Source: a phage
Sequence record: NC_101842.1
Length of the DNA: 64,000 bases
Direction: 5' to 3' (one strand)
A program made the position numbers and the translations under genes. Positions 892-57,853 of this stretch are shown piece after piece. Numbering within the stretch: the stretch's first letter is position 1; each line of letters opens with the position of its first letter. The notes under the pieces were generated by a model. It was not told the origin of the DNA, did no database searches, and saw only the letters and a list, made by a program, of their open reading frames with translations.

Positions 892-899
892 TTTCTAAG

Positions 900-930
900 A
901 CCTCCCCCGCTTCGGCGGGGATTTTCTATT
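900..930 (+). terminator. rho-independent terminator
   Basis: GC stem CCCCGC-TTCG-GCGGGG followed by ATTTTCTATTT. Confidence 0.6.
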
Positions 931-940
931 TGGAGTCATT

Positions 941-1441
941 GTGAAAATTAAGATCTTTGCTATTATTTTGAGCGCACTTTTATCGCTGCCTGTTGTTGCA
1001 GCACCAAAACAAAAAGTATATCATACTTGCAAGCCATCAGATACTAAGGAAAACATTCTGGCATGCAATATCTACAGGGAAGCTAGAGGAGATGGCACGA
1101 TGGGTATGCTGGCATCTGGGTTTGCCACACTAAACAGGAAATCCCACCCTAAATACCCAGACACTATAAGAAAGATTGTCTACCAACCTAACCAGTTTTC
1201 GTGGACAAACCACGGCAAAACTTTTAAGGTGACAGAAAAAGATTCATGGGATCACGCTAAAAGTCTTGCAAAGATGCTTCTAAAGGTCTATAATAACAAC
1301 CATGTTGCATACATGGCTATGGACATAACAGGTGGAGCAACACACTACCATACAACCAAAGTACGACCGAAATGGGCAAAAAAGATGCAGAGGACAGCTC
1401 AATTCGGGAGCCATATCTACTACAAGGAGCGCAATAAATGA
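941..1441 (+). CDS. secreted cell-wall hydrolase, SleB/CwlJ-like
   Basis: GTG start after GGAG; N-terminal signal peptide (MKIKIFAIILSALLSLPVVAA); motifs NIYREARGDG, ATLNR, VYQPNQFSW typical of the SleB/CwlJ hydrolase family. Confidence 0.65.
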   Translation: MKIKIFAIILSALLSLPVVAAPKQKVYHTCKPSDTKENILACNIYREARGDGTMGMLASGFATLNRKSHPKYPDTIRKIVYQPNQFSWTNHGKTFKVTEKDSWDHAKSLAKMLLKVYNNNHVAYMAMDITGGATHYHTTKVRPKWAKKMQRTAQFGSHIYYKERNK

Positions 1442-3420: not shown

Positions 3421-3430
3421 GGAGACCAAG

Positions 3431-6006: not shown

Positions 6007-6344
6007 GTTTGTGGAGAAATATAGTTAACTACGTGTGTGGCAATCCAACTCCTGAAGAGAAGGATGTTGTGATTCACGATTTTACTAAAAGATCTCGTGA
6101 AAAAGATCTACTGCTGACAAAGGTGACTGATAAAGATCCTGCAGTAGGGGACTGGGCAGGTTTTGCGTTTACATCGGACAAATACACCTTTAACAAAGGT
6201 GACTATCTTGTTGTGGATTTTAACGAAGACATCGAGGGTGCTGAACCTTACTATCAGACCCTTATTGTTGCAGGGTGTGTCGATCTCTCTGCAGGCATGC
6301 ACAGTTTGATTCTTTTTGAGCTTGACTGTGAAGACCTTCAGTAG
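6003..6344 (+). CDS. hypothetical protein
   Basis: ATGA overlap with helicase stop; GGGGGA RBS; no recognisable domain. Confidence 0.6.
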   Translation: MSLWRNIVNYVCGNPTPEEKDVVIHDFTKRSREKDLLLTKVTDKDPAVGDWAGFAFTSDKYTFNKGDYLVVDFNEDIEGAEPYYQTLIVAGCVDLSAGMHSLILFELDCEDLQ

Positions 6345-6405
6345 TAAGATGTGAGTCTAAAGGGGAGGCACTCCTCCCCACAAAAACTAAGGAGAGCACC
6401 AAACT

Positions 6406-11824: not shown

Positions 11825-11882
11825 TGTTTAACAAAGAGTGGGAGGGGTAGTACAACCGCCTCCCCTTTAAGGAGAACTGTAT

Positions 11883-14660
11883 ATGAGCATGTGGTCGTTC
11901 GACTTTGAGTCATCCGGTTTGCTGGAAGATCCAGATCTTTATTATCACTGCGGCCTGTTTAAAGAGCTGAATAAGAACCGTTTTATGCTGTTCCTTCCTC
12001 TAAATGACCGCACACACTACTCCGAAGAGGATATAGAGAAGGCTAAGAACTTTATTCTGGCAAAGAAAACTCTTCATAAAGATTTTGAAGTTCGCATAGC
12101 AGATTTTTCGGAGTTGGAAGGTTGGCTTACAGGCAATTCCGACTGGTCACCAACAGCTTTGAACTGCCATAACTGCTACAGTTATGACTTTATGCTGATA
12201 GAAAGATTATCCGGTATTCATTTTGATATGTTCCGTGATCCTAAATGCATGGGGACTATCAACGACCACCAGGTTAACCTGTTTGATACGTTGGCGATGA
12301 GCAGAATCTTGTGGCCTGATCGCCCTTTACCAAAAGGTTGTCCGGACTCTGTATTCAACCCGGTTACTAAGAAAATGCAGCCTGTTGGTCCTCACGGCCT
12401 TATGGCATGGGGCTACGCCCTTGGTAACCAGAAAGTTCAAATTGATGACTGGCGCGATCTTCCGTTGTGGAAGTATGTGGATCGTGTATTCGAGGACGTT
12501 ATCATCCAGGAGCTGCTCTGGAAAGAGCTGGTAGCGGAATCAAAAGGTGTATTCTACGGCAAATCTGACATGCAGAACTTTATGTACGATCCAGCCAAAG
12601 AGAAGCCGAAAGGGTTCAAGAAAATCACCTGGAAGAACGCATTACGCCGAGGCATGCTGCAGCACTTCCTGATGGAGCTGCAGGCCCGTCAGGGTGTGTA
12701 TTTCGACATAGATGGGGCTATTGCTTTACGTGACCGTTGCGATGCGTGGATGAAAGAGATCGCTGATCGTGTTGAACCTCAACTTCCTTTAAAAGAGTTG
12801 TCAATGTCTCAGCGGCCCAAGTTCCCTGAAAAGCCGTTTAACCAAGATGGGACAATCTCCAATAATGGTTGGAAATGGTTAAAAGATAAGCTTGGCTATC
12901 CTGTAGACATGAGCGCTTTAGAATTCAAAGCCCCGCCTAAGCGAGCATTTACCTCCACAGGAGATGTCAGCAAGATGGGGATAAAATGGTGCGAAGAGAT
13001 GGGCTGCAAAGACCCCGACAAGATGGCTGATTTCTTGAGAGGTTATATTAAGGGCACCTCCACACCACAACCTTTACCTAAAGAGCTGATGGATCAGGCA
13101 ATAAGTGATCTGCAGCAGAAGCGAATGCCTGACTGCAAGATACCTATGAAAATCAGCAATCAGGACGACATTAAGCGATACCTGATCAGTGCTGGTTGGC
13201 TTCCGACAATGTGGAGAACTAAGGATGTAACTAAGGACAGCAAGAAGAAAGCTCTACCTGATGCAGATGTTGATGCACGAGTATATGCATACATGGACGA
13301 GCTTTTAGAGTCAGAGTATTGTGACCTAATTATCAACTTCTGGAACAAAACTGATGCTAAGTTTCAGACAACAGTGCACAAGTTCCGAAGCTTTCCTAAC
13401 TCCGAAAGGATTAAAAAGGAAGTGTTCGGGAAAATACGCAGAAAAGCCAGGGCACTTATTACTTCTCCGCAACTGAAAGATACGTTTGGACACCTATGTC
13501 CGAATCTTGAAAAATTGAACGGAGAGATGGCTAAAGATATCGTCTTGTGGTTATCATTGCGAAACCGCAGATCGGTCCTTGATCCAATCAAGGAGGATAA
13601 GGTTGATACTGGTCTTCTTAATCACCCACGTTTGAAGATTGACCATAAGCTTCCTGCTAAAAGCTCTGGATTAACAAACACTTCCCGACAGAAACACAGT
13701 ATTTGTGCAAACATGCCTAAACCATCTCCTAAAGTGGTTATGGGTAAAGAGATGCGTAGCTTGTGGGGTGTTCCTCCTGGATACTTTGAGATCGGTATTG
13801 ACGGGTCCAACTTAGAGCAGCTTATCGGGGCTTGGGGTGCCTTTGAGTTCGACAACGGCTTGTACTATGATGTTGTAAGTAACGGGGACGCACACCAAAA
13901 CAATGCTGAGGCATATACAAAAGTAGCAGGCAGAGAGGTGTCTCGTAACGACGGTAAACCTATCACGTATGGGGTTATGTACGGGGCACAAAAAGATAAA
14001 GTTGCAGATATGCTGGATATCTCCCCAGAGTTGGGGCAAAGGGTGATCGATGCACTTTGGGATGCCAACCCCGGTCTTAAGGGGCGCAAAGAGGATCTGG
14101 AGAAATTCTGGGAAGCAACAGGTAAGAAGTTTATCTACTCTTTTGATGGTCATGCTATCTGGACCCGATCTAAACACTCTTTACTTAATGCATACCAACA
14201 AAATGGTGGTGCATCGCTGTGTGACTTAGTTGGGATACTCATGCACCACCAAATGGTGAAGCGTGGGTGGTACGATGAAGGTGTCCGTCGTATTATCTAT
14301 TACCATGACGAATATCAGCTTCAAGTGCCTGACACACCGAAGTATAAGACTGTGTACACCTTCGACACAATTGAAGAACTGGAAGCATTTAAGGCAGAGC
14401 AGGAAGCCAAACTTCATGTGTTCGACGGTCATAAGTACAAAAAGGCACGCAAGGATGAGGACGGAAACGAAGTGGTTGACAGAGACGGAAACACGGTGTA
14501 CGATCCTATCCTGAACGATGACGGAAAGCTTGAACTTATCTGGAGCCCTGTGGGTGAAATGGTGGTGCATTGCTTCTGGCAAGCTTCTAAAATGATGGGA
14601 GTCCCGTTCCAGATCACAGGTGAATACTTGTGTGGTCGTAACTGGGGTGATTGTCACTAA
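11883..14660 (+). CDS. DNA polymerase, family A, with N-terminal 3'-5' exonuclease motifs
   Basis: Exo I FDFESSG; pol motif A-like EIGIDGSNLEQL; motif B R...K...YGVMYG; motif C YYHDEY. Confidence 0.85.
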   Translation: MSMWSFDFESSGLLEDPDLYYHCGLFKELNKNRFMLFLPLNDRTHYSEEDIEKAKNFILAKKTLHKDFEVRIADFSELEGWLTGNSDWSPTALNCHNCYSYDFMLIERLSGIHFDMFRDPKCMGTINDHQVNLFDTLAMSRILWPDRPLPKGCPDSVFNPVTKKMQPVGPHGLMAWGYALGNQKVQIDDWRDLPLWKYVDRVFEDVIIQELLWKELVAESKGVFYGKSDMQNFMYDPAKEKPKGFKKITWKNALRRGMLQHFLMELQARQGVYFDIDGAIALRDRCDAWMKEIADRVEPQLPLKELSMSQRPKFPEKPFNQDGTISNNGWKWLKDKLGYPVDMSALEFKAPPKRAFTSTGDVSKMGIKWCEEMGCKDPDKMADFLRGYIKGTSTPQPLPKELMDQAISDLQQKRMPDCKIPMKISNQDDIKRYLISAGWLPTMWRTKDVTKDSKKKALPDADVDARVYAYMDELLESEYCDLIINFWNKTDAKFQTTVHKFRSFPNSERIKKEVFGKIRRKARALITSPQLKDTFGHLCPNLEKLNGEMAKDIVLWLSLRNRRSVLDPIKEDKVDTGLLNHPRLKIDHKLPAKSSGLTNTSRQKHSICANMPKPSPKVVMGKEMRSLWGVPPGYFEIGIDGSNLEQLIGAWGAFEFDNGLYYDVVSNGDAHQNNAEAYTKVAGREVSRNDGKPITYGVMYGAQKDKVADMLDISPELGQRVIDALWDANPGLKGRKEDLEKFWEATGKKFIYSFDGHAIWTRSKHSLLNAYQQNGGASLCDLVGILMHHQMVKRGWYDEGVRRIIYYHDEYQLQVPDTPKYKTVYTFDTIEELEAFKAEQEAKLHVFDGHKYKKARKDEDGNEVVDRDGNTVYDPILNDDGKLELIWSPVGEMVVHCFWQASKMMGVPFQITGEYLCGRNWGDCH

Positions 14661-27112: not shown

Positions 27113-27736
27113 ATGACCACCGTTAACATTACCGCAGGTTACAATTTATCTTTCGACGTGCTGACCGACGAACAAAAAGAAAAAGCCGTTGAAATGGTCC
27201 GCGAAAGAGAAGAACACAGCGGGGATAACTTTTTTGCAGAAAGTGTAATTGAATACTATAAAGAATATGTTTTTCCAGAGTATGGCCTTGAAGATACCGA
27301 AGTACATTGGTCAGGCTTTTGGTGCCAGGGTGACGGCGCGTCAATCAGTGCTGAAAACGTGGATTTAGAAAAATTTTTGCGTAAAGTAAAGGCCCTGACC
27401 AAGTTCCGATCAATTCGTCACTTGTTCGGCACAATGCACGATGGCGAGTTATCAGCCAGTGTTGAGCGTGATCCATATAGCCGCTATAGTCACGAAAACA
27501 CTGTAAGCGGATACATTGATACCACCTGGCTAGATCTGACCGCCAAACAAGAAAACAAAGTGGAAGACCTGGAAGAGCTGATCACCGAGACGGTACGGGA
27601 GCTATCCCGCAAGGTTTACGTAGACCTGGAGGAGGCCTATCTTGAACAGTTTACTACCGAAAACCTGATCGGCCTTATTGAGGCCAATGATTGGCGGTTT
27701 GATGTGGATGAATATGGCGAGATGACTTTTTCATAA
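27113..27736 (+). CDS. acidic hypothetical protein
   Basis: TAGGAGAAAA RBS; 207 aa; no confident family. Confidence 0.65.
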   Translation: MTTVNITAGYNLSFDVLTDEQKEKAVEMVREREEHSGDNFFAESVIEYYKEYVFPEYGLEDTEVHWSGFWCQGDGASISAENVDLEKFLRKVKALTKFRSIRHLFGTMHDGELSASVERDPYSRYSHENTVSGYIDTTWLDLTAKQENKVEDLEELITETVRELSRKVYVDLEEAYLEQFTTENLIGLIEANDWRFDVDEYGEMTFS

Positions 27737-27744
27737 ATAAAGTG

Positions 27745-27801
27745 TTGCAATAACCTAAAAACCTGCTATATTAAAACTCAAGGGGGCAAGACGTTTGCCC
27801 C
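27745..27801 (+). promoter_or_regulatory. sigma70-like promoter plus 5'-UTR hairpin
   Basis: TTGCAA, 16 nt, TATATT; hairpin GGGGGCAAGACGTTTGCCCC. Confidence 0.45.
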
Positions 27802-27825
27802 ACACAAAACAAAGAGGAAAACATT

Positions 27826-28206
27826 ATGAAAAACACTACCAAGGCTATTGACACCGTTATGTTTAACCTGGTTACATTCCGTGAAGATATGAAAGATCTT
27901 CCACGTGAAACAGTGTGCGATCACATTGAAAACTATCGCAAACTAATCAAAGAGTTGCCCCTAAAACGTGACCAGTATGCGGCTAACGCTATGCTCAACG
28001 CCATGATCAAAAAGATGATCCAGTGTGATTTAACCCTGGCCTATGACTATGCGGGTGGTCGTTTTGCAGTATACAATCAGCCCGTGCCCGGTATGGGCAC
28101 CACCGAAGAATTGCACGCGCTCAATCTAAAACAAGACGTATGGGATAACATGCCCCGCGTGGTGGTGTGGGCAGAAAGCGGAAAGATTTACGGCGATAAT
28201 TTTTAA
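27826..28206 (+). CDS. hypothetical protein
   Basis: AAAGAGGAAAA RBS. Confidence 0.65.
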   Translation: MKNTTKAIDTVMFNLVTFREDMKDLPRETVCDHIENYRKLIKELPLKRDQYAANAMLNAMIKKMIQCDLTLAYDYAGGRFAVYNQPVPGMGTTEELHALNLKQDVWDNMPRVVVWAESGKIYGDNF

Positions 28207-33018: not shown

Positions 33019-33282
33019 ATGAAACGTCTTGACCAGCTCAAACTAGTTCAATATATGGCTTATCGTGTTCTGGAAGTCCAGAAAGGTAGCAAAAAAGAGG
33101 TTTGCGAGAAAGCTTATAAGATCTTTACCCGCAAAAAAGATGACTGGATGCTACGCCAGACCAAAAAGGCTGACATCTTGGGGTACCTGGAAGAAGAGAT
33201 CCGACTTGAAGAACAAGAAGAGATCCGCCGTAGTGAGGCAGATTATCAGGCAGCTTGGGAAAACTGGATGAGCAACAAATAA
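33019..33282 (+). CDS. hypothetical protein
   Basis: AAAGAGGAAAAAC RBS after hairpin GGGCCAAAAGGCCC. Confidence 0.6.
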   Translation: MKRLDQLKLVQYMAYRVLEVQKGSKKEVCEKAYKIFTRKKDDWMLRQTKKADILGYLEEEIRLEEQEEIRRSEADYQAAWENWMSNK

Positions 33283-33301
33283 TACAACAAGATGAACGGT
33301 C

Positions 33302-33327
33302 AGGGGCTTAAAGCCCCTTTCTTTTTG
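33302..33327 (+). terminator. rho-independent terminator (end of + strand island)
   Basis: AGGGGC-TTAAA-GCCCCT then TTCTTTTTG. Confidence 0.7.
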
Positions 33328-33929
33328 TCTTCTCTTTTCCTACCATAAACGGCCCTACCTGGCAAGTGGAATAATTGACGAGCCATCAATCCCACACACT
33401 GTACAAATATACATGGAAAATAACTATTGCATAATTTTTCATTGTGTGGTAGCAAGGCCATTTTTACCCGTTTTACCTTCCAAAATTGCACGTAATGCCG
33501 CTATTGCACAAATTTTAACCTGATGCACATCTCCAATATCTTGTCAACAACTAAAAATCTTTATAAGTCATGCACTTACATAACCACAAAAGCGTGTTCT
33601 ACGTGAAAAATCGAGTATAACTATAGCCGCCAGATCTCAGAATTTACGTACGCTCACCAGTCTATAGCCTGCTAAGTATTTATTCCAACCATAGAATAAC
33701 GGAATAGTCAATACCTGCATAAAATAATTATTCGTGTAAACTGCATAACATAAATCGGCTAGGATGTCAACATTTTTCGTAAACAGCTCGAAATTATAAC
33801 GGTGAGTTATAATAAACAGAGAAATCTTTAGTCGTCTAATGTTTACTGTACATTACTATACTGACTGGAATCATTAGATGACTAAGAGAAAGATAAGAAA
33901 TCATTAACAATGCAATTGTTTTATTCGTA

Positions 33930-34115
33930 ACAATAAGGCAACTATGCAAACGAATGGCATGGCGCGACGGAGTCGCGACATAATATAAAAGCAGTAACCA
34001 TCACCCCCGTGATAGTTTGTCTGCAAACTATTAATCAGATCATAGTTGCCTTGTATTTAGTTAATCATGACATAACAAGCAAGGCAACTATAGATCTGCT
34101 AATAGTTGCCCTGCT
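33930..34115. repeat. iteron cluster: AAGGCAACTAT motif x4 (two direct, two inverted)
   Basis: Sites at ~33935 (+), 34042 (-), 34081 (+), 34102 (-); the last two form a 9-bp-arm palindrome around AGATCT. Confidence 0.6.
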
Positions 34116-34194
34116 TTTATATTATGTCATGCTAATTATAATCAGTGCGATTATTGTCATGTATAATTATTGTCATGCAAACGAATGGCATGGC
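33944..34194. repeat. 20-nt exact direct repeat ATGCAAACGAATGGCATGGC
   Basis: Copies at ~33944-33963 and ~34175-34194. Confidence 0.65.
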
Positions 34195-34199
34195 TGATT

Positions 34200-34295
34200 A
34201 TCGGTGTGTAAACAGTCAATCATGTAAATGGTTAGCATGTGAACAATCAGGAATGTAAACAATCCAGTGTGTAAACTAATAGGTGTGTAAAAGTG
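34200..34295. repeat. array of GTGTAAAC-like motifs
   Basis: Six copies (GTGTGTAAACAG, CATGTAAATGG, CATGTGAACAA, GAATGTAAACAA, GTGTGTAAACTA, GTGTGTAAAAG) at 11-22-bp spacing; more copies at ~33731, 34546, 35195, 35270. Confidence 0.6.
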
Positions 34296-34849
34296 TCATG
34301 TTGTGTCAGTTAGGTCACATTATGTCAGACAAGTTTTTCCCCTCTTTGTCAAGTGCTGCATGAAAAATTTACAAGCTTGTATGGTAGCATTTTTGCGGCC
34401 CTGTTTACATTCAGGAGTGTATGTATAATCCTTGGTGTGTGGGCGTTTAGACGTCTAGACGGTTGGAAGTATGCAGGTCAATATCTAATCTATTGGCTGC
34501 TAACTATATCCCACACAAATGATAAGAAATATAATTGTTATATGCGTAAACTGTAACTCATGTTATCAATCCCTGTATGTATCGCCAGTGGTGCGCATAA
34601 TGGGTATTATGTTAAATTGCCCGTAATGATAACTATTCTCACAATGATAGGTATTCTCATTCACCCCCACAAGATAGGTTGCAAATGTTGTGCCACTGTG
34701 TGAACGGCCTAGCCTATTAATTTGCCTCACTGCCTTGATATTTGAGAATTGTTATAAGAATGAGAAGTATTCCCATTTCGTCCGCCTGGCAGCACTCCTG
34801 TAGGTCAGGTCAAAATCGTGGTAGAATTGGGCCTGTTCAGATATTTCTG

Positions 34850-35065
34850 GCTGACTCTTCAGGTCTGTGTGGGAAAAGCCAACCTCTCCGGCGGGGCATG
34901 GGGTCATGACGGGAAAATTGCAGGTCAATTAAAAAATTTACGTGGTGTATGAAGCGCTCTTCAGGTAAGGCATGTATTATGGGATGAAACCCTCTTCAGG
35001 CAATGATATTTGTGGGTGTGATATTTGCTGGAAAGCCAGATATGACGGGACTCCCGGCGGGGCAG
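34850..35065. repeat. degenerate ~140-bp tandem repeat with CTCTTCAGG and CCGGCGGGGCA motifs
   Basis: CTCTTCAGG at ~34855, 34957, 34992 (also 35406, 36056); CCGGCGGGGCA(T/G)GGG at ~34888 and ~35055; GCAGGTCAAT at ~34473 and ~34920. Confidence 0.5.
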
Positions 35066-35766
35066 GGGTAGTACAGACAGGGAAAATATGGAGGATGTGG
35101 TTGGGTAAATTGATCAGGCAGGTAGAGTATGGAATATGTTACAGGTATGTTAAATAGGGAGGCTGAATATCTGTAGGATTTGTGTGTAAAATCAAAGACT
35201 TAAGTGGTGTTGTGGTATTTTCTATAAATAATTCAAGTTTAATAGGTAATATTTGTCTCTATTCGCTTTGTGTGGTAAACAGATTCAGATGAGATTGGTT
35301 TACAAGTGTATACATAATATACAAATTAAAGATACAAGAAACCCCCCTCCCCCTTCGGCTACCATTCACCTTTTCCTCTGACTGGTACTTAAACACTTAT
35401 TCAGACTCTTCAGGTTATCACCCATATATCATATGGCAGTGACTGGTGTCCTCCGGCCCCTCTTTCGTCACCCGTCCGCTTCGCCATGCTAATGCCATAG
35501 CCAATGGTTCGGTTGTTCACCCTGCTCACTCAGGTGTATCTCCATACCCCTTCAAACCGAAGAGAACAGAAAACCCGAATTACTCGGTAAAAGAAAAGAG
35601 AAGAACTTAATTTTATCAGGATAGGCAAGAATGTCAAGGCATGACTGCTCACTAAACAAGCAAACAGTCATGTGTGGGAGGTAAGTGATTGTGGTGGTGG
35701 GAAATTTAGTTGAAAGATGTGCTACAGGTGCGCTTCCAGCACTTTAGCAGGGCAGCTAATTGTGTG

Positions 35767-35982
35767 TCAGTCCAGCGGTTCATCCTCTACTTCACTGAAA
35801 TCAATGTTCATGGTCTCTTCCCAACCATCGATCTCAGCACAAGAGTGGAGTTCTTTAGGACTTACTCCCAAAGCATCAGCAACAGAGTCCATATTTAACA
35901 CCTCTGGCAGGTATGATTCATCGAATTCAAGGTAAATCAGGCCACGAGTGTTGTCAGCTCCACCAAATATTTCTATCTTCAT
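35767..35982 (-). CDS. acidic hypothetical protein
   Basis: First gene (lowest coordinate) of the - strand array. Confidence 0.55.
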   Translation of the reverse strand: MKIEIFGGADNTRGLIYLEFDESYLPEVLNMDSVADALGVSPKELHSCAEIDGWEETMNIDFSEVEDEPLD

Positions 35983-41252: not shown

Positions 41253-41257
41253 GCACC

Positions 41258-41575
41258 TCATTCTCCAAAGTCAATCTTTACTTTGCCTTTCCCCTTACCT
41301 TTCTTTCCACCGCATTTAGCCAGCTGACGTGCTGCAACATCTACCATACGGTCAGTTGCCTCGTAAGCATCACTACCTTTAGCCTTGGCAATAACTTCTT
41401 TTCCAGAATTGTCAAAAATGAACGCCATAACTTCCTGGTGATCATTTTCAACTTTTACACTCACACGTGCATAGTTGGCAGAGGGGTGCAAACGCTCCAG
41501 TTTAGACATTTTGTTGGAAATGAAAGACACCATACCTTCAGTGATTTCTACGTTGCCAGTGATTTCAATTTGCAT
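41258..41575 (-). CDS. hpf: ribosome hibernation promoting factor / RaiA-family protein
   Basis: Aligns along its length to E. coli HPF as I recall it: MQIEITGNVEITEG...KLE...VKVE...AKAKGSDAYEATDRMVDVAARQLAK; own promoter and 5' hairpin. Confidence 0.8.
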   Translation of the reverse strand: MQIEITGNVEITEGMVSFISNKMSKLERLHPSANYARVSVKVENDHQEVMAFIFDNSGKEVIAKAKGSDAYEATDRMVDVAARQLAKCGGKKGKGKGKVKIDFGE

Positions 41576-47225: not shown

Positions 47226-47540
47226 CTACCAGGTTACTGTCAAGTAGGCAACCGTATTATTTTTCTCTGGGGAGATGCCAACAACATCTACCTGCAGACC
47301 TCCTGCCCTTAAATCTCCAACAATGTGCGGGAAGTAATCTGAGAGATGCGATGGTAGATTTATCGAAAATCCGCACCCCAGAAAGCCTGCTAACGCTTTA
47401 TTTTGTATCTCCCCTACAATCGCATCATAAATAGAGTTAAGCTCGTCAGGAAGCGTTACAGGACGTTTTAGCGCTAACTGGTGTAATTTGTCCTTAGCAC
47501 TCATTTTCATTTCAGGTCTACCTCTGGAGGTGCCAACCAC
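47226..47540 (-). CDS. hypothetical protein
   Basis: ORF in array. Confidence 0.55.
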   Translation of the reverse strand: MVGTSRGRPEMKMSAKDKLHQLALKRPVTLPDELNSIYDAIVGEIQNKALAGFLGCGFSINLPSHLSDYFPHIVGDLRAGGLQVDVVGISPEKNNTVAYLTVTW

Positions 47541-48040
47541 ATAAATGGCGGCAAGTCTAAACGGTTTTTCTTATCCCAGACAAAATATGCATATGCTTGC
47601 CCGTCAGTTCTGCCATTTGATTGAAAAGATGGACGCTTAGATATTGTGATCACAGTGGTAGGTGCATTATCAAGCCACCATTCAAATCTGGCTTTGCTTT
47701 CCAGAAAATTAAGACGCAAAAGCATAATAACTACGTCAGCATCTTTCAACGCCTTGTCTACAAACTCACGAGCCAAACTGTATGGTGGGTTGGTGATAAT
47801 ACAGTCAACATGGTTGTATTCTGTATTCAGATAGTCAACACCTTCTTGGATTTCTCCCCATGCAGATCCTAACGGCATACGTGAGTAGAACACACCTGAG
47901 GCACTATTCCTGCAAGGCTCTAAATAGGTCCAGTCTTCTGGGAACGTAATAAGGTCATACAGCCCTTCTGCACACCACTCCGGTGTCACATACTCATCGT
48001 AAGCGTTACGTTGTTCATCAGGTTTTCTAGCACAAGTCAT
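47507..48040 (-). CDS. phage-type DNA N6-adenine methyltransferase (Dam-like, NPPY motif)
   Basis: Catalytic motif DCIITNPPY; N-terminal YVTPEWCAEG typical of small phage Dam-family MTases. Confidence 0.75.
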   Translation of the reverse strand: MTCARKPDEQRNAYDEYVTPEWCAEGLYDLITFPEDWTYLEPCRNSASGVFYSRMPLGSAWGEIQEGVDYLNTEYNHVDCIITNPPYSLAREFVDKALKDADVVIMLLRLNFLESKARFEWWLDNAPTTVITISKRPSFQSNGRTDGQAYAYFVWDKKNRLDLPPFMWLAPPEVDLK

Positions 48041-48091
48041 GCAAATCTCCAGATCATAAAAGCCCTCCGAAGAGGGCTTTAGAATTAATGT

Positions 48092-49138
48092 TTAAGCTTC
48101 TTCGACAATTCCTGCACCCAGGATTTTTTCATTGAGCTCTTTTGCTGTTTTAATAATATTGTCCACCAGACGCTTGCGAGTCTTATCTTTTACCTTAACC
48201 TCTTCACCGCCGTTCAGGGTTGTCTTCAATTGGGACAGAATGTCTTGAAGTTCAACGACAGAGAATCGCTGCAGATCTTCTGAGGTAATCTCACCTAAGG
48301 CAATCTTAATGGTCTCACCACTTTCCATCTGCAGATTTAGGAACACAGTGTGAACATCACCTTTCGAACCAACCGCTTTCGCAGATTCAACAGCATGAAC
48401 TAGCTCATCTAAAGAGGTGCACTGGTGAATCTCAGGAAGACCTGCTTCACCTAACACGCCTTCATCACCTTTTGCCAGAAGCTTTTTAGGTTTTTGTCCG
48501 TTCTGGATGCGCTGTATGTTACCTTCATCCAGAATGATGGCTCCAGTTCGAGCTGCCAGCTCCTCTCCGTCCAACCACACTTCACCACCAGCTGTGATGG
48601 ATGCGATCTCATCTTCTGTCAGCACCCCACCGTAGTATTTTTCGATCAGGCGTTCAAAACGTTTTTTCCAGTAGCTGACCTGAGTATTCATGTTCACACC
48701 GTTACCATAAGTGCCACCTTGATAGTAGTGGAACATAAATTCTGTGTCCGGAGCCACAGTGCGTTCTTTACAACCCAGCCATAAGATTGTTCCCGCAGAG
48801 CAGCACATCCCTTCAGCATGTGCAACAACGCTTGCCTGAGACTCGCGGAATGCCTGTAGATAAGCCATTGCAATGTGCACGCAACCACCAGGGCTATTGA
48901 TGATCACCCGAATGCTTTCTTCCGGCTGAGCCATACGGATCGTCTGCAGACGAGACATATGATCCTGCAGGTCTTCCAAATCGTCGATATAAAGAACGTG
49001 GTCAACAACAGGTGTTGGGTAGCTGTATGTTTCCATGATACCGCCCGGCATACCAAACATTTTATTACTCATAGGTTCGAAACCGTTCTGTTTTTCTTTC
49101 ATGCCGTGTACCATGGTGCTGCGAGGTGTTAAATTCAT
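48092..49138 (-). CDS. ClpP-family serine peptidase with N- and C-terminal extensions
   Basis: INSPGG motif, Ser-containing GMCCSAGT, His in EFMFHYY, in ClpP-like order; 348 aa. Confidence 0.7.
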   Translation of the reverse strand: MNLTPRSTMVHGMKEKQNGFEPMSNKMFGMPGGIMETYSYPTPVVDHVLYIDDLEDLQDHMSRLQTIRMAQPEESIRVIINSPGGCVHIAMAYLQAFRESQASVVAHAEGMCCSAGTILWLGCKERTVAPDTEFMFHYYQGGTYGNGVNMNTQVSYWKKRFERLIEKYYGGVLTEDEIASITAGGEVWLDGEELAARTGAIILDEGNIQRIQNGQKPKKLLAKGDEGVLGEAGLPEIHQCTSLDELVHAVESAKAVGSKGDVHTVFLNLQMESGETIKIALGEITSEDLQRFSVVELQDILSQLKTTLNGGEEVKVKDKTRKRLVDNIIKTAKELNEKILGAGIVEEA

Positions 49139-49198
49139 GAGAAATCCTTAATATTGGAAGTTGAAAGCTATTTATTTAAACCTGATTCACATTTACCT

Positions 49199-49510
49199 TT
49201 ATTTAGCAATCACTATGGAATACTTACGATTGTCAGAAGCATCACAACTCAATGATTGCCAGTCTACCACATACCACGTATCATTGTCAACAATTACTTT
49301 ATCGCCTGTTCTGTAGCAGGTGCTGCTTTCAATAATTCGAGACTCGATAAAGAATCTGTGTCGGCGCTCACGTAGCAACGCTAAGTTGATTATATTACCA
49401 CCACTGTCCTTGATCCACACATTCTTGGATCCTTTATTTGCCAAAATTGTCTCACCGTTGTAGACGAACAGGCAGTATATTTTATTCAGTCTCTCTTGTA
49501 TTGTAGCCAT
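49199..49510 (-). CDS. hypothetical protein
   Basis: ATG (MATIQERL) after AAGGAGAAGGAG; track ORF 49199-49636 trimmed. Confidence 0.5.
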   Translation of the reverse strand: MATIQERLNKIYCLFVYNGETILANKGSKNVWIKDSGGNIINLALLRERRHRFFIESRIIESSTCYRTGDKVIVDNDTWYVVDWQSLSCDASDNRKYSIVIAK

Positions 49511-49614
49511 ACTATCTCCTTCTCCTTGTTTTGTCCGATGATAATATCTAAAGCTTACCTGTTTGTCAACAACTGTTTTAGATATTTTAAGGGTGGAATA
49601 ACCACCCTTCTGTA

Positions 49615-50403
49615 TTACTCGGAAACAGGGGTCCAAATATGATTTGCACGATCTTCAATAAGATTGAGTGCAATCTGACGACCCAACCCGGAACGAACGA
49701 CATCGTCTGGACTATCAAAGCTAATCATTCCAACCTCAGGATCTGGATGACGAGTAAAGAAATCCGTCACCCATGCGAGGCCAGATTTACCAGGGATGTC
49801 ACGTTGGCTATTATCACCCATAATTACAAGGGTGGCTTGATCAGAGATCCTTGTGATAATTGACAACATTTCTTCAGGGTTAGTTTGCTGTGCCTCGTCA
49901 ATCAGGACAAAGCATCGCTCATCGAAACTACGACCACGAATGCTTTCAACTTCACAAATCTCGATACGACTGTTCTGACCGTCTCCCAGCATTGCGGTAA
50001 AAGCACCTTTGCCAACACGACGACAAATCGTGTCCATCATGCTTCGAAGATAGGGCCACAGTTTCTGCATTGCATTTCCGGGTTTAAATCCTGAAGTCTT
50101 TCCTGTCTGGACGTAAGGACGTGCAACAATGATCTTATCAATCTCGTTCTTACGCAGAAGATCACCTGCATATGCAGATGCCATAAATGTCTTACCGGAT
50201 CCAAACACACCGTTTACAATAATAATCTTACGTGACCCTAGATAATCAAGATACTTTTGCTGCTTCTTATTCATTGGTCGGAGAGCTGGAGCGGTGTGCT
50301 CTCTTTCGTCAGCAAATTTCTCAGCAGCCTTACGCAGGCGATCAGATTTGCGAGCCTCTCTAGCTTCATCACGCATGCGTTTTGTTTCTTTAGCTCGACC
50401 CAT
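49615..50403 (-). CDS. phoH: PhoH-like ATPase
   Basis: Walker A GVFGSGKTF; blocks VARPYVQTGKTSGFKPG, IRGRSF, IDEAQQT, MGDNSQRD. Confidence 0.85.
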   Translation of the reverse strand: MGRAKETKRMRDEAREARKSDRLRKAAEKFADEREHTAPALRPMNKKQQKYLDYLGSRKIIIVNGVFGSGKTFMASAYAGDLLRKNEIDKIIVARPYVQTGKTSGFKPGNAMQKLWPYLRSMMDTICRRVGKGAFTAMLGDGQNSRIEICEVESIRGRSFDERCFVLIDEAQQTNPEEMLSIITRISDQATLVIMGDNSQRDIPGKSGLAWVTDFFTRHPDPEVGMISFDSPDDVVRSGLGRQIALNLIEDRANHIWTPVSE

Positions 50404-50441
50404 GTTGGGACTCCTTTCAGATTGAGATGTGCCAAGTACTT

Positions 50442-50792
50442 TTACTGCAACAGTTTTTCAATAGCCGCTTCCATGCTGCTTGCAACAGCCTGAACTCGGA
50501 TATTCATCTCTTCTTGGTGGATCAGCTCCTTAAGCTCTTTAATGGTAAATTCTTTAGAGAAACCTTCCACCATAATCTTGTGCAAGGCTTCTTGCGTGTC
50601 TACTTGCAAGAACTTTTCCAGTTTGTTGGCAGAGGCTTCTAAATCAGCCCGAATACGAGGGTCATCTGTGCGATTCAGCATTAGGCGTAAGCCATCAAGA
50701 TTAGTAGAAATAGCATCTGCATGTTGAGTAACTAACCGTGGCAAAATGAGATCTACAAACTTATTAGCCAAATCGATACGTTCTTGTGTCAC
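50442..50792 (-). CDS. hypothetical protein
   Basis: GTG start overlapping upstream stop. Confidence 0.55.
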   Translation of the reverse strand: MTQERIDLANKFVDLILPRLVTQHADAISTNLDGLRLMLNRTDDPRIRADLEASANKLEKFLQVDTQEALHKIMVEGFSKEFTIKELKELIHQEEMNIRVQAVASSMEAAIEKLLQ

Positions 50793-50902: not shown

Positions 50903-50964
50903 TTGGCACCTCCTCTGCTTTCATTACGACAATTATAACCGACTTAACAAAGCTTTGTCAACGA

Positions 50965-51438
50965 TTAGTCAACCTGAACCCAACCATCTGCTACCTTTTT
51001 AAACATTCTTTGGTTATCACTGCCTCTAAAGGGTTTTTTGGTGGGGTTATCTTTTTCGTACTTACCGTCCATAATGTAATCAACACTATCTTTAATGTAA
51101 TCGGGGACTTCTTCAAACAAATACCCTGTGTACACCCAGATAGTTTTTGTGTTGCCGAAGCGTTCACGGATAGCGCAAATGATTGAATACATACCATCAA
51201 TATTGTAAGGTGCTAAAGGCTCTCCACCGCATAATGTAACGCCGGTAATATGGTTTGGTTCTATAGAGCTAAGTATGCTCTCGATTGTGTCATTTGTTAA
51301 CGGTTCCCCTTTAGCGGGGGACCAAACACTTTTGTTTTGGCAACCGACGCAGTGATGTGGACAACCAGAACAGAACACCGTTGTCCTGATACCTGGGCCG
51401 TCAACCATGCTACACTCTATAATATTGACAACATTCAT
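50965..51438 (-). CDS. nrdG: anaerobic ribonucleotide reductase activating protein (radical SAM)
   Basis: Cys cluster CSGCPHHCVGC near N-terminus; adjacent to nrdD. Confidence 0.8.
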   Translation of the reverse strand: MNVVNIIECSMVDGPGIRTTVFCSGCPHHCVGCQNKSVWSPAKGEPLTNDTIESILSSIEPNHITGVTLCGGEPLAPYNIDGMYSIICAIRERFGNTKTIWVYTGYLFEEVPDYIKDSVDYIMDGKYEKDNPTKKPFRGSDNQRMFKKVADGWVQVD

Positions 51439-51671
51439 TCCTTACCCTCTTTGAGATAGGGATATTCAGGCCCACAATAAGCTCTATCTAAGAAAACAGC
51501 TTCTTCCCCTCTGGAATCAGTAGATCTATAATACCCATCACCCTGGTAACTAACGAACCAGTAGCACCCATCATTACTTTCTACTGTTGTGGCTCTGTCC
51601 GAATGAAAGATAATTTCGTAATCCTTACCGAATGTAAACCATCTGTTAGCTTTTACACAGACACCTATCAT
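51435..51671 (-). CDS. hypothetical protein
   Basis: ATGA overlap with nrdG. Confidence 0.55.
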   Translation of the reverse strand: MIGVCVKANRWFTFGKDYEIIFHSDRATTVESNDGCYWFVSYQGDGYYRSTDSRGEEAVFLDRAYCGPEYPYLKEGKE

Positions 51672-51822
51672 AAGGAACCTCTCTTCTGTGGTGTGCTTCT
51701 ATTCAAGATAAACTTATAAAAGTCCATTTGATGAAGCCGTATAACTTTTTATACTTACGCTTCAGTGCTAACAATTTTATCTTGATTTTCTTGATAGATT
51801 TCCGCATTTCGACCCCTTATGC

Positions 51823-51939
51823 TTATAAGTACTCCGCATCGCATTCAGGGCAATGCCAAATAAAATCGTCCAGTGCCTTGCACCAACGAAGATTGCAATG
51901 ACAGCCGCACTTGCAAATTTTATAAATACCTGTAGACAT
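51823..51939 (-). CDS. small Cys-rich zinc-finger-like peptide (38 aa)
   Basis: Not in ORF track; GGAGG RBS; MSTGIYKICKCGCHCNLRWCKALDDFIWHCPECDAEYL. Confidence 0.45.
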   Translation of the reverse strand: MSTGIYKICKCGCHCNLRWCKALDDFIWHCPECDAEYL

Positions 51940-52008
51940 ACTGCACCTCCTACTCCTAGCTCACTGTGTGTCAATAATATGCCACATCCTTGTGGCTTTT
52001 GTCAAGTA

Positions 52009-54132
52009 TCAGCAACCACAACTTCCGTAGTGCTTAACTCGCTCGATAACTTCCGCTTGCTTACCTTTATTGTAAGGACGAGAGTTAGGACTGGAAAGGT
52101 ATCCAGACACACGTCGAATTACGCTGATCGTTCCCTCTTCATGGTTTCCACACTCTGGGCATACAAAGCCTTTAGCTGTTGCACTGAACTCACCAGAGAA
52201 ACCACACTTGAGACATTTATCCACAGGCTGGTTGATACCAAAATACATAATGTGTTTATATCCGAAATCAACAAGAGCTTCCAAAGCATCTAAGTTGTTT
52301 TTCAGATTTGGTGTCTCTACGTATCCGATGTTGCCACCAGAGGAGATCATAGCAAAACCTTCCTCATACTCCCACTTATCAAAAGGAGAGCTATTGATCC
52401 ATACTGGCTGATGGAAACTGTTGGTGAGATATTCATGCTCGTGCTTCAACACTTCAGGATATTCACGATCCAGACAGGTTGCAGCTTTATAGCATAGACT
52501 CTCAGAAGGGGTGCCGTACAAGCTAAACGCTAGTCTACTTTCCTTCTTGTATCTCTCACAAGCATCTCTCATGTGCTGAAGTATTCCAAGAGCTAAAGCC
52601 TTGTCACCCTCCCTGCCCAAAATCTGACAGGTTTCATACACACCAATATACCCAATACTGATGGAAGCGTACCCGTCGTAGAAGAGTTTATCAATACTCT
52701 CTTCAGGGTCCAGGCGAGCAAGAGCGCCTTCACACCACATGATAGGGTTCTGCCCTGCCTTTGTCCCTTTTAGACGATTAACCCTTACAAGGTGAGCCTC
52801 GTATGCAAGATCCAGGTATTCGTCAAGAACTGCAAAGAAATCAACACCTTCCGTTTTAGCTTTTGCCGCAATCATTGGCAGATTAAGGCTAACAACGCCT
52901 AAGTTAAATCTGCCAAGGTATTTCTCCTCGCCTGTTTCCAAGTCATTGTATTTGCTAAGAAAACTCCGGCAACCCATGCTCGTTACTTTACCATCTGTCG
53001 AGCCTGTCACTTTACGATTTAGTGGAACAGAAACAAAGTCAGGATAAATCCGCTCTGCAGAGCATTCCAGAGCTAATCGTTTCAAATCATAGTTAGGATC
53101 TCCAGGGTTCATGTTGACACCCTCTTCTAGGAAGAACAACACTTTAGGGAACACAGGTGTGATACGTTCTTCACCAAGACCCATTTTGTGGACTTTCAAG
53201 TAGTTTTTGGTAATCATTCTACCAAAGACTGAGGTGTCCAGACCTAAACTTAATGTGATGAATGGGGTTTGCCCGTTGACAGAAGTTAACGTATTGATTT
53301 GATAGAGTAAAGTCTGCATGCTGTCAAATACGTCTTTATCTGTCATCTGCATTGCAACAGTCTCAGCATCTGGCAACCAATGTTCCTGGCAAAATTTAAG
53401 GTTCTTCTCATAAGTCGCCTCAGCATACTGTGCCAGATAATGATCAATATGGCTCATAGTCTGACCCCCATATTGAGCACTAGCTACCGCACTAGAGATT
53501 TGGCTAAGGATTGTTGTTGCAACCCCTATTGACTTCGGCTTACTGACATGGGCGTTACCAATGTTGAATCCGTTTTCCAACATATCTGGATAATTTACCA
53601 AACAACAGTTTGTTAACGGACTGATCAAGTAGTCAAGATCATGCACATGGATGAAGCCTTTATTGTGCTCTTCTGAGACACGGTCTGGCAGGATCTGTGT
53701 TGATGCAAGGTGTTTGCTAAGGATGCCTGCAAGCAGGTCACGATGAGTGTGTACATGATTGGTAGGCTTATTTGCGTTTTCTTTTGTAAATTCATCACAA
53801 GTTCGATCCAAGAAGCCACTAATATCTGCAAGCAGTTTTCCACCTGCCTCTCTGTTATTATCTCTTGTCTGTCTATACTGGATGTATTCTCTGGCTGCAC
53901 ATTTTAAACCCATATCCATAAGAGCATCTTCAACAAGGATATGGATATTTTTTACAGAGATCGTGCACTGGTCGGTTGGTAGATTGTTAGCAACAACTTC
54001 ATTAACCGCACAAGCGATCCGGTAAGCTTCTTCTTCAGTATGTCCAGACTCAAGTAAGGCGGACTCTGCCGCCTTGATCACCTTAATTCCGTTATAGAAC
54101 TCTTCTCTACCGTCCCGTTTTACAACTTTCAC
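52009..54132 (-). CDS. nrdD: anaerobic ribonucleoside-triphosphate reductase (class III)
   Basis: C-terminal glycyl-radical motif RRVSGYL; Zn ribbon CLKCG...CPECG; 707 aa. Confidence 0.9.
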   Translation of the reverse strand: MKVVKRDGREEFYNGIKVIKAAESALLESGHTEEEAYRIACAVNEVVANNLPTDQCTISVKNIHILVEDALMDMGLKCAAREYIQYRQTRDNNREAGGKLLADISGFLDRTCDEFTKENANKPTNHVHTHRDLLAGILSKHLASTQILPDRVSEEHNKGFIHVHDLDYLISPLTNCCLVNYPDMLENGFNIGNAHVSKPKSIGVATTILSQISSAVASAQYGGQTMSHIDHYLAQYAEATYEKNLKFCQEHWLPDAETVAMQMTDKDVFDSMQTLLYQINTLTSVNGQTPFITLSLGLDTSVFGRMITKNYLKVHKMGLGEERITPVFPKVLFFLEEGVNMNPGDPNYDLKRLALECSAERIYPDFVSVPLNRKVTGSTDGKVTSMGCRSFLSKYNDLETGEEKYLGRFNLGVVSLNLPMIAAKAKTEGVDFFAVLDEYLDLAYEAHLVRVNRLKGTKAGQNPIMWCEGALARLDPEESIDKLFYDGYASISIGYIGVYETCQILGREGDKALALGILQHMRDACERYKKESRLAFSLYGTPSESLCYKAATCLDREYPEVLKHEHEYLTNSFHQPVWINSSPFDKWEYEEGFAMISSGGNIGYVETPNLKNNLDALEALVDFGYKHIMYFGINQPVDKCLKCGFSGEFSATAKGFVCPECGNHEEGTISVIRRVSGYLSSPNSRPYNKGKQAEVIERVKHYGSCGC

Positions 54133-55537: not shown

Positions 55538-57853
55538 TTATAGTGCACAGCTTTCGCAATACGGATCTTCAACTGAACTATCTGCAATCAAAGGATAGTT
55601 CTTTCTGGTTTCATCTTCAGCCTGTTTCTTGGCATGAAGTTCCTCTGCCAAGGAGTCACCAGCACCAACCCTAGAGTTTAAATAATACCATGTCTTCATC
55701 CCGAATTTAGTGGCACGGATAAGGTACCCTAGCTGCTCCTTCATTGAAATTTTACCATCTTTCAACTTGGTGTAGTCTATGTATAAATCCGCGCTGATTG
55801 CCTGACCTGTGAATTTTTGAATCACAGCATACATATCGATCATGTCGTTAGTATCAACGTCCCAAGCCGAAGTGTAATACTCTTTCAACTCATCGTATTC
55901 AGGAACGATAAACAGCACCTGCCCTTGTGGCGACTTTTTAAAGATAATGTGCTCACGGACAGGATAAACCCCGTTAGTGGTGTTTGTTGCCAGCGAAGAG
56001 CTTTCATTAGGCATATATGCTTCAAGAACGCTATTACGTAGCCCACCATTTTCAATGATTTCTTTACGTAACCCTTCCCAATCCTGTTTAAGAGAAGGAT
56101 CTTTCACCACACTATCGACCTCTTTGTTATAAGTGTCGATTGGTAACCAACCTTCTGGATATTTTGTTTTATACATCCACTCGCAGACACCACGCTCTTT
56201 TGCCAACCGTAAACTTGCCTTATGCAAGCTGTAGCTGTGAAGTTCTGCAAGATCGTGAACAAGCTGTTTACTTTCAGGAGATCCGTAAGTAACCTTGTGG
56301 CTGGCAATAAAATGTGCAACATTGGTAAGGCCAACCCCGATGGATCTGCGTTTTTTAACAGTACTCTCCATGTTTTCATACGGATATGTCATGATTTCCA
56401 TAACATTGTCAATCATAAGCACCGTGTAGTATGCAACATCCTCATACTCCTCTGGGGTAACCCTTCCAGCTACAAGAGATGACAGGAAGCACAATGCAAC
56501 CTCACCATCATCAACATCGTACTTGAAGATATTACGCATATCTGAATAGCCTTTTGTCGGGAGGGCTATTTCTGCACACAGGTTGCTTGAATAGATCACA
56601 TCTTTAAAAGGTGTATGTCTATTCATCTCATCTGTCCAGTATACGTACAGCCTTCCCACCTCAGTACGCTGCGTGATCAGCTCAACAGCAAGATCTCTAG
56701 CCCGGATCCATGTCTTAGGAATACTGTCATCTTTAGCAATACGCTCAACCTCTGCATCGAACTCCTCCATAGACATGGTGAAGATACCCTCATGCAGTTG
56801 AGGAGCGTGCTTATAAGAAACAAGCATCCAATCTAAATTCTTAGCCACACGGTTGATAAACGACCTATTAATACCGATGGAGTAGTCCATGGTGTTGATT
56901 CTTTTTGAAGCAACAGTCATAGGGTTTCTCAAACGGATTAGCTCATCAATCTGCGGGTCCAGTGCAAGGAATGATACTGTTGCAGAACCGCCACGTGATT
57001 GTTGTCTGTTCTCCTTAACACCAGCATCAATACCTCGATAATATGGAATCTTACCCATGTGTTTAATAGTGTTACCGCGAACACCATCACCTGCAGATCT
57101 TGATGATAAATAGTAGCCGATACCTGCTTGGTTAACCGTCATTGTGTACGCAACTTCACGTGCCACACCAATAGATTTTGCTGTATCGTCAGCTTTTATT
57201 ACACAACAAGATGCATACCCTGTCTTACCTGTGCGCAGCCCGTTTAAGTACGGTGTCGGGGCATTGATCTTTAAGTCGGACAGATAAGTGTATAATTTTA
57301 CAACATCGTTGATACGACGTTCTTTCGGCATATTCTTCATGACAGCCATTGCTATCCCCATAAACATCATCTGGGGAGATTCAAACAAGGTGTCTTTAAG
57401 AGTATCCTTGATCCCGTATTTGTCGCGAAACTGTTTAAGGACTGCATAGCCATAACCGAGATCTTTACTGTGGTCAATAACAGCGTCTAAAGTGTTTAGC
57501 TCGGTAAAGCTATATCCCATATCCTCCCAATACCCTTTCTCAACCATGTCGTTGTAAAATGATGGTAAGGAAGGGATCTTTGTAAACCCTCCAAAAGCCT
57601 CTTTATAAATCTGACCAATAAGAACACGACCAGCCATACGGGAATGTGCTTCGTCTTTACGGCTAACACAGGAGTCTATGATAGCTTGGTTAACTTCTTT
57701 GGTTGTACATCCATCATACAGTCGTTTGTATGCATCCAGTGCAATATGTGACCAATTGCCGTTACCGTCGTCACCGAAAATAGCTGCCTTATTTAAACGT
57801 TCTGGATCGAATGCCACTTCACATCCGTTGCTTTTAATTACCTTGGTGATCAA
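55538..57853 (-). CDS. nrdA: ribonucleotide reductase class Ia alpha subunit
   Basis: Catalytic NLCAEI block; C-terminal CESC pair; 771 aa. Confidence 0.9.
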   Translation of the reverse strand: MITKVIKSNGCEVAFDPERLNKAAIFGDDGNGNWSHIALDAYKRLYDGCTTKEVNQAIIDSCVSRKDEAHSRMAGRVLIGQIYKEAFGGFTKIPSLPSFYNDMVEKGYWEDMGYSFTELNTLDAVIDHSKDLGYGYAVLKQFRDKYGIKDTLKDTLFESPQMMFMGIAMAVMKNMPKERRINDVVKLYTYLSDLKINAPTPYLNGLRTGKTGYASCCVIKADDTAKSIGVAREVAYTMTVNQAGIGYYLSSRSAGDGVRGNTIKHMGKIPYYRGIDAGVKENRQQSRGGSATVSFLALDPQIDELIRLRNPMTVASKRINTMDYSIGINRSFINRVAKNLDWMLVSYKHAPQLHEGIFTMSMEEFDAEVERIAKDDSIPKTWIRARDLAVELITQRTEVGRLYVYWTDEMNRHTPFKDVIYSSNLCAEIALPTKGYSDMRNIFKYDVDDGEVALCFLSSLVAGRVTPEEYEDVAYYTVLMIDNVMEIMTYPYENMESTVKKRRSIGVGLTNVAHFIASHKVTYGSPESKQLVHDLAELHSYSLHKASLRLAKERGVCEWMYKTKYPEGWLPIDTYNKEVDSVVKDPSLKQDWEGLRKEIIENGGLRNSVLEAYMPNESSSLATNTTNGVYPVREHIIFKKSPQGQVLFIVPEYDELKEYYTSAWDVDTNDMIDMYAVIQKFTGQAISADLYIDYTKLKDGKISMKEQLGYLIRATKFGMKTWYYLNSRVGAGDSLAEELHAKKQAEDETRKNYPLIADSSVEDPYCESCAL

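Follow-up and report, generated by a model that had tools for sequence, protein, structure and literature searches.

The described systems closest to the gene considered here are bacterial ClpP (MEROPS family S14; E. coli, PDB 1TYF/1YG6/6WR2), the ClpP-related head-maturation proteases of phages (NF045542; PHROGs 1684, 94, 2976 and 133; K283 gp4), the short phage ClpP-like proteins of PHROG 1827, and the phage ClpP-ClpX pairs such as that of Bacillus megaphage G (gp257/gp258; PMC12484599). Iyer et al. (2021) described phage ClpP as a patchily distributed peptidase, possibly directed at the host, and the role of phage PhoH as enigmatic (PMC7824862). Here we analyze a ClpP-like gene of 348 amino acids (aa) at positions 48092..49138, on the minus strand, of a 64,000-nucleotide (nt) stretch of phage DNA (NC_101842.1), which is referred to below as the window. 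We consider it fairly probable that its product is a cytoplasmic serine peptidase with a ClpP fold, which has no structural role and is part of a phage-specific clade. This peptidase would be expressed from host-type promoters, act independently of ClpX and ClpA, and use its C-terminal domain as a tethered recruiter.

A 3-kb query around the gene matches Escherichia phage MaxTheCat (Bas57, MZ501094.1; Vequintavirus, rV5-like) with 100% identity; about 100 further genomes of rV5-like phages match it with 95-99%. Window positions equal positions of the MaxTheCat record minus 56,816. The open reading frame (ORF) is annotated in this record as bas57_0175, ‘ClpP-like protease’, and its rV5 orthologue gp122 was labelled ‘ClpP (ATP-dependent) protease subunit’ in the 2013 rV5 paper (Table S3; PMC3606486). 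As the gene is already annotated, it is not a new element: bas57_0175/gp122 has been catalogued for more than 10 years and is a core gene of the rV5-like phages, a group used for therapy and biocontrol. It is, rather, a mislabelled and uncharacterized variant of the ClpP family. Our literature search found neither an experimental study of its clade nor a description of the PhoH/ClpP-like gene pair considered below, and as far as this search shows the conserved pair appears to be undescribed. The ClpP-like gene is unmentioned in the PAK_P3/P4 transcriptome paper, and PADLOC returns no defence or anti-defence match for the protease or for the 103-aa ORF beside it. MaxTheCat itself is a tractable phage of the BASEL collection and grows on E. 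coli K-12.

Catalytic core and comparison with bacterial ClpP

Pfam CLP_protease (PF00574) matches residues 59-168 of the protein (E=2.1e-12, 47.7 bits against a cut-off of 20.2). The phrog_5410 profile covers residues 24-344 (2.3e-153) under the name ‘ATP-dependent protease’, which is derived from homology and has no experimental basis, and phrog_1827 covers the core (2.6e-40). The AlphaFold2 model, that of a monomer with a mean predicted local distance difference test score (pLDDT) of 77, consists of a disordered segment (residues 1-44), a confident core (45-212, pLDDT about 85-94), a disordered linker (about 213-242) and a separate alpha/beta domain (243-341). When the model is compared with the PDB by Foldseek, the top 50 matches are all ClpP, with E of about 1e-10 and template-modeling (TM) scores of 0.63-0.74 normalized to the target.

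The core (residues 45-212; 48503..49006, minus strand), delimited by pLDDT, Foldseek and conservation, carries the INSPGG oxyanion hole at residues 80-85, the nucleophile Ser114 in MCCSAGT (codon 48797-48799), the base His137 in FMFHYYQGG (codon 48728-48730), the Gly-rich handle strand 141-149, and Glu186 (codon 48581-48583), which aligns with Asp171 of E. coli ClpP. Translation, Pfam and Foldseek thus bear out the ClpP-like active-site elements that an earlier sequence-only reading of this DNA had pointed out, and on alignment the catalytic triad is not absent. With bacterial ClpP the protein shares the alpha/beta core fold (TM about 0.7 of the target), the INSPGG loop, the positions of Ser and His, the acidic residue at Asp171, and the Gly-rich strand with the long helix that form the handle. 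However, the overall identity is about 20%, and homology to the axial loops, helix A and the propeptide is missing.

Ser114 and His137 do not vary, either among 22 close homologues or among 20 sequences that represent 15 divergent lineages. The glycines of the oxyanion hole, G84 and G85, are likewise invariant in all sampled lineages at 22-30% overall identity. The Asp171 column holds Asp or Glu in 15 of the 20 lineage representatives, and Gln or Ser in the other five. In the handle region G141, G142, G145, G147 and N149 are invariant in the 22 homologues, which is compatible with ring stacking, although it does not prove it. The strict conservation of the oxyanion loop, of Ser and His, and of the handle strand argues for a working peptidase, which would have a ClpP-like chamber architecture.

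Outside the core the protein departs from ClpP at both ends. The N-terminal segment (residues 1-44; 49007..49138, minus strand) is predicted to be disordered (pLDDT <50) and does not align with ClpP residues 1-27, so that the axial loops and helix A have no counterpart. Within it residues 25-44, approximately, are alone conserved, with the motifs FG (28-29) and YxYP (38-41); in short-form members of the clade just 13-22 residues precede the first strand. Instead of an N-terminal extension of about 60 aa, as had been proposed, there are about 44 disordered residues in place of the axial loop and helix A. The C-terminal extension, estimated before at about 110 aa, measures about 135 aa in total. 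It begins with a flexible Gly/Lys-rich linker (residues 213-242; 48413..48502, minus strand), which is variable and gapped in the alignment and has pLDDT <50 at 223-235. The alpha/beta domain follows (243-348; 48095..48412, minus strand); it is delimited from the structure model and is specific to Vequintavirinae-type phages. We recognize no known fold in this domain; there is a weak HeH/SAP/Rho_N-like hint around F292, E296-L297 and R321, L324.

The protein could in principle be an alternative Clp proteolytic subunit, whose tetradecamers dock host ClpX/ClpA or mix with host ClpP and in this way redirect host ATP-dependent proteolysis. The ClpP fold, the Ser-His-acid triad and the conserved handle region would fit such a role, as would the long-standing annotation ‘ATP-dependent protease subunit’ and the precedent of phages with a genuine ClpP and ClpX, e.g. 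phage G. However, the hydrophobic pocket for the IGF/LGF loops is charged or polar across the clade. In an alignment that is gap-free between the INSPGG and Ser anchors, Y60, Y62, F82, I90, M92, F112 and L114 of E. coli ClpP correspond to R77, I79, E99, H107, E109, T127 and A129. Among the 22 close homologues R77, E99, H107 and E109 do not vary, and each of the 20 lineage representatives has polar or charged residues in the docking pocket. The absent axial loops and helix A are, moreover, the elements needed for gating and for communication with the unfoldase. TIGR00493 scores 33.2 bits against a cut-off of 308.6 and all PRK ClpP models score at most 39 bits against 228-361, that is, every ClpP equivalog score is about 10-fold under its cut-off. 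A Clp-type unfoldase such as ClpX or ClpA is annotated neither next to the gene nor elsewhere in the phage genome. We regard a docking Clp subunit as unlikely. As the elements that couple ClpP to ClpX/ClpA are missing from the sequence, the name ‘ATP-dependent protease subunit’ probably misleads.

The only AAA+ protein of the genome is a MoxR-type ATPase, which is paired with a VWA/DUF2201 metallopeptidase. The DUF2201 metallopeptidase + VWA protein (record 51033-52493) and the MoxR-type ATPase (record 56145-57329, window <1-513) form a classic MoxR-VWA pair; PHROG 1314 names the former ‘HNH endonuclease’, in conflict with Pfam.

Phage-specific clade and the capsid-maturation alternative

A clade profile built from 11 divergent core sequences retrieves members down to 139 bits, followed by a gap to 76 bits. 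From 76 bits down the matches are annotated with PF01972/PF25145 and have names like ‘head maturation protease, ClpP-related’. Judged by these scores, the clade is distinct both from cellular ClpP and from the ClpP-type head-maturation proteases. The latter are its nearest relatives, and the clade probably descends from ClpP-type prohead proteases. In an exhaustive HMMER search of the full-length profile against 1.84 billion representatives there are 85 clusters at E<=1e-30 and 1,815 at E<=1e-10. About 7 clusters match via the C-terminal domain, which implies that the long form (PHROG 5410) is confined to Vequintavirinae-type phages.

The short form of the clade, PHROG 1827, includes the ICP1 ClpP-like protein, KVP40 ClpP, Pakpunavirus orf40, Barbavirus CLP and proteins of T5-like phages. 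These score 167-248 bits and share with bas57_0175 the non-capsid context, the loss of the ClpP docking features and, in most lineages, a PhoH gene upstream. Unlike bas57_0175, most short forms have 180-250 aa and lack the C-terminal domain, and the extensions of the ICP1 and Vibrio phage F99 proteins are not detectably homologous to it. Homology of the Vequintavirinae and ICP1 extensions was considered, and none was detected. The clade is widespread and non-capsid, being found in rV5-like phages, ICP1, KVP40, T5-like phages, Pakpuna-, Otago- and Barbaviruses and many metagenomic phages, and its targets could be host proteins.

The kinship with head-maturation proteases bears on another explanation, in which the protein is a displaced or second prohead protease, maybe with a scaffold-like or capsid-targeting C-terminal domain, and processes capsid, scaffold or internal proteins in procapsids. 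Like these proteases, it is a phage-encoded ClpP-fold serine protease and carries a C-terminal extension, as they often do; extensions of this kind commonly target such proteases to the procapsid (HK97 gp4, lambda C/Nu3). NF045542, ‘head maturation protease, ClpP-related’, is the best NCBIfam match and several PHROG head-maturation families match at 1e-14 to 1e-22. However, the NF045542 score of 60.4 bits is half of the cut-off of 120, and a clear gap separates the clade from the head-maturation family: the ClpP-type protease of Vibrio phage K283, encoded in the order large terminase subunit (TerL)-portal-protease-major capsid protein (MCP), obtains 72 bits with the clade profile, against 167-248 for clade members. 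Affiliation with S49 is not found either, since TIGR00706 SppA_dom gives E=0.023 and 14 bits where 155 are required, His137 occupies the place of the general base as it does in S14, and there is no Ser-Lys dyad.

Genome context also speaks against a prohead protease. Head-maturation proteases lie between portal and MCP, whereas bas57_0175 is found among nucleotide-metabolism genes. The capsid module of MaxTheCat (record 683-6820) comprises terminase, Mu-like portal, a 139-aa protein, scaffold, decoration protein and lambda-E-type MCP, and lies outside the window, about 100 kb from the ClpP-like gene; the location is indeed atypical for a prohead protease, as noted in the sequence-only reading. 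The 139-aa protein, between portal and scaffold, matches Pfam Peptidase_S78_2 (XkdF) with E=8.7e-18, so the module has a protease and a scaffold of its own, and hhalign detects no similarity of the C-terminal domain to the phage scaffold or to the S78 protease. A separate capsid-module protease coexists with the ClpP-like gene also in Pakpunavirus Ab1, the Barba phages and P26059A; in Ab1 the gene between portal and scaffold is homologous to bas57_0005 (E=2.7e-7). Extension-free short forms occur in the same non-capsid context in the T4-like KVP40 and in T5-like phages, which have dedicated prohead proteases (gp21 and pb11 roles). The predicted promoters of the ClpP-like gene are of the sigma70 type and not the T4-late-like motif of structural genes.

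Published virion proteomes agree with this. The 19 proteins that mass spectrometry identified in rV5 virions do not include the product of locus 122. In Certrevirus CB7, whose genome carries the ClpP-like gene, 26 virion proteins were found, including the capsid-module ‘prohead core protein protease’ CB7_5 and none from the ClpP region (PMC7344957). We consider a prohead protease/scaffold fusion, one of the two proposals made from the sequence alone, to be very unlikely in view of the separate capsid module, the virion proteomes and the lack of hhalign similarity of the C-terminal domain, and we give very little credence to a displaced or second prohead protease in general. The other proposal, in which host or phage proteins would be the targets of a cytoplasmic protease, appears the most plausible.

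XkdF/S78_2-type capsid proteases (MaxTheCat record 3955-4374; Ab1 record 27604-28074) are labelled ‘DNA methyltransferase’ in PHROG 1530, and this label has been carried into the RefSeq-style annotation of Pakpunavirus Ab1 orf_49. It is a probable annotation error that stems from fused proteins.

Linkage to PhoH and the proposed mode of action

Gene neighborhoods were scanned with hidden Markov models at 31 clade loci, which represent 15 lineages at <45% protease identity, within a neighbor range of 5 kb. A PhoH gene lies upstream and co-directional in 24 of the 31 loci, and never downstream or on the opposite strand. It is the most recurrent neighbor, within range in 10 of the 15 lineages; the runner-up family, the small subunit of ribonucleotide reductase, reaches 6/15, and all others at most 4. 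PhoH and the ClpP-like gene overlap or are immediately adjacent in five lineages (spacing -8 to +11 nt), as is typical of partners that are coupled in translation. Among annotated phages, Seunavirus 4MG, Certrevirus P7_Pc, ICP1, Otagovirus UNO-G1W1, Barbavirus and Vibrio phage F99 have PhoH 0-4 genes upstream of the clade gene and on its strand. The same holds for 8 of 8 metagenomic contigs, which were selected on divergence and length alone. The pair is present at census loci L004, L005, L008, L011, L013, L014, L016-L025 and L028-L033; at L017 a PIN-PhoH fusion takes the place of PhoH.

From this gene order we tentatively suggest a functional, though not obligate, connection between PhoH and the peptidase. 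PhoH is ruled out as an obligate partner, because Pakpunavirus Ab1 has the peptidase and a genome without PhoH. The position 3′ of PhoH, often overlapping it, offers a concrete and testable handle on the role of phage PhoH.

A stronger version would make PhoH and the peptidase physical partners in a ClpX-independent, ATP-driven degradation machine, e.g. one that dismantles host ribonucleoprotein (RNP) or other protein complexes. Replacement of the AAA+ unfoldase by PhoH would explain the remodelled docking pocket. The pocket residues show no co-variation with PhoH linkage, as the pocket is polar in linked and unlinked lineages. In phage G the ClpP-fold peptidase gene also stands beside the gene of a P-loop ATPase, but that neighbor is a real ClpX unfoldase, whereas here it is PhoH, an SF1-helicase-like ATPase associated with RNA. 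We know of no protein-unfolding activity of PhoH. Such a machine seems to us rather improbable; if it exists, it would give the first mechanistic context for phage PhoH, a widely used marker gene.

For the cytoplasmic peptidase that we favor, we suggest the following mode of action. The peptidase would be made in the early or middle phase of infection by the host RNA polymerase, together with nucleotide-metabolism genes. It would assemble into ClpP-like rings and cleave cytoplasmic host or phage proteins or peptides without the host Clp unfoldases. The Vequintavirinae C-terminal domain, held on its flexible linker, would likely serve as a tether or adaptor to substrates or to a cellular location. 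The position directly 3′ of PhoH suggests that the peptidase and PhoH may work in one pathway.

Several points weigh against this picture. The third catalytic position is Gln in 18 of the 22 close homologues and Ser in Vibrio phage F99, which implies that the triad is not strictly conserved in the clade. This would suit a catalytically weak or inactive ClpP-like binder, e.g. a decoy or poison subunit directed against host ClpP or a chaperone-like cage, and the remodelled N-terminus and surface pockets would suit it as well. However, the invariance of Ser114, His137, G84 and G85 at 22-30% identity is a signature of selection for catalysis, and we give an inactive binder hardly any credence. As to the role in the cytoplasm, the nearest relatives of the clade, which form the out-group of the profile search, are head-maturation proteases. 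The absence from mature virions would also be compatible with a transient role in the procapsid, because prohead proteases are often lost on maturation.

As to PhoH, the census sample is small and its lineages are not phylogenetically independent, and the linkage may in part reflect shared ancestry of one module. PhoH is not linked locally in KVP40, a T5-like phage and an N4-like phage, and it is absent from the whole 92.8-kb genome of Pakpunavirus Ab1, which has the protease. In the phage studied here a hairpin, a promoter and an extra ORF separate PhoH from the ClpP-like gene. Finally, the promoter and terminator calls are consensus predictions.

Expression signals, neighboring genes and other features

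The interval 48092-50403 holds three genes: the ClpP-like gene, a 103-aa ORF and PhoH. PhoH (bas57_0177; 49615..50403, minus strand) is a P-loop ATPase of 262 aa, identified by Pfam PhoH (3.1e-47) and by the neighborhood census. The 103-aa ORF (bas57_0176; 49199..49510, minus strand) belongs to phrog_5456 (1e-38), and in Vequintavirinae its position between the other two genes is conserved; 4MG_142 is homologous to it (BLASTP 4e-09; phrog_5456 9e-46). Downstream of the ClpP-like gene, at 47507..48040 on the minus strand, lies an N6-adenine DNA methyltransferase of 177 aa (phrog_799 1.7e-66; weak Pfam Dam/EcoRI_methylase matches). The ClpP-like gene had been placed between a Dam-like methyltransferase and PhoH in an early/metabolic block. 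The location holds, with two corrections: the 103-aa ORF intervenes before PhoH, and the methyltransferase is just outside the interval, beyond the terminator downstream of the ClpP-like gene. A DNA adenine methyltransferase is a frequent downstream neighbor of clade genes, as in the window; it is found 0-2 genes downstream also in 4MG, P7_Pc, Barba9A and at loci L016, L022 and L023.

The terminator (48055..48080, minus strand) is predicted as a strong intrinsic one, a GC-rich hairpin with a T-run, AAAGCCCTC-TTCG-GAGGGCTTT followed by TAT. It starts 12 nt past the stop codon of the ClpP-like gene and its RNA folds with -16 kcal/mol. It is identical to rV5 t122, for which Table S4 of the rV5 paper gives -14.9 kcal/mol. 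Two promoters of the sigma70 type are predicted on the same strand. The first, TTGACA-17-TATTAT (11/12; 49541..49569), comes from a promoter scan and equals rV5 P121 (Table S4); it is internal to a larger unit and is predicted to drive the 103-aa ORF and the ClpP-like gene. The second, TTGACA-18-TATAAT (12/12; 50932..50961), fits the consensus fully, is equivalent to rV5 P118 and is located 5′ of two small ORFs and PhoH. The Gotham record has an ARNold terminator at the t122 site and a PhagePromoter feature at the P121 site. The stop codon of PhoH is directly followed by the hairpin GGGTGG-TTATT-CCACCC (49570-49612), which lacks a U-tract.

Because no terminator is predicted between the promoter at 50932..50961 and the t122 site at 48055..48080, a single unit of about 2.9 kb, with a promoter inside it, may extend from the two small ORFs through PhoH and the 103-aa ORF to the ClpP-like gene. 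The rV5 authors described a T4-late-like motif upstream of structural genes. Near the ClpP-like gene its sole match, with 1 mismatch, lies inside the 103-aa ORF, and the motif is absent as a promoter. From these predicted signals we infer early or middle expression by host RNA polymerase. The same minus-strand early/middle block contains bas57_0152 (window 41257-41574; record 98073-98390), which is annotated as ‘ribosome hibernation factor’ and may be of relevance should ribosomes or RNPs be the target of the PhoH/peptidase pair.

Some observations concern the sequence records and the genome at large. Window 47500-50500 is 95-99% identical to 19 records with the name ‘Campylobacter phage’ (e.g. 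MG065672.1 A141, with C. jejuni as host); probably either the hosts are mislabelled or there was contamination of the preparations. No genes are annotated in a 2.5-kb stretch at about window 33235-35768 (record 90051-92584), which coincides with a switch of gene orientation and of GC skew. Neither an Rfam family nor an ORF of more than 87 aa occurs in it, and a weak tandem repeat of 18 nt is its only one. A ‘non-coding’ box is likewise drawn in the rV5 paper (PMC3606486), and the stretch may be an origin or a regulatory region. The coding sequence of the DNA polymerase, bas57_0074 (window 10554-13607; record 67370-70423), is annotated as a join of two pieces, and this implies that it contains a frameshift or is interrupted by an intron or an intein-like element.

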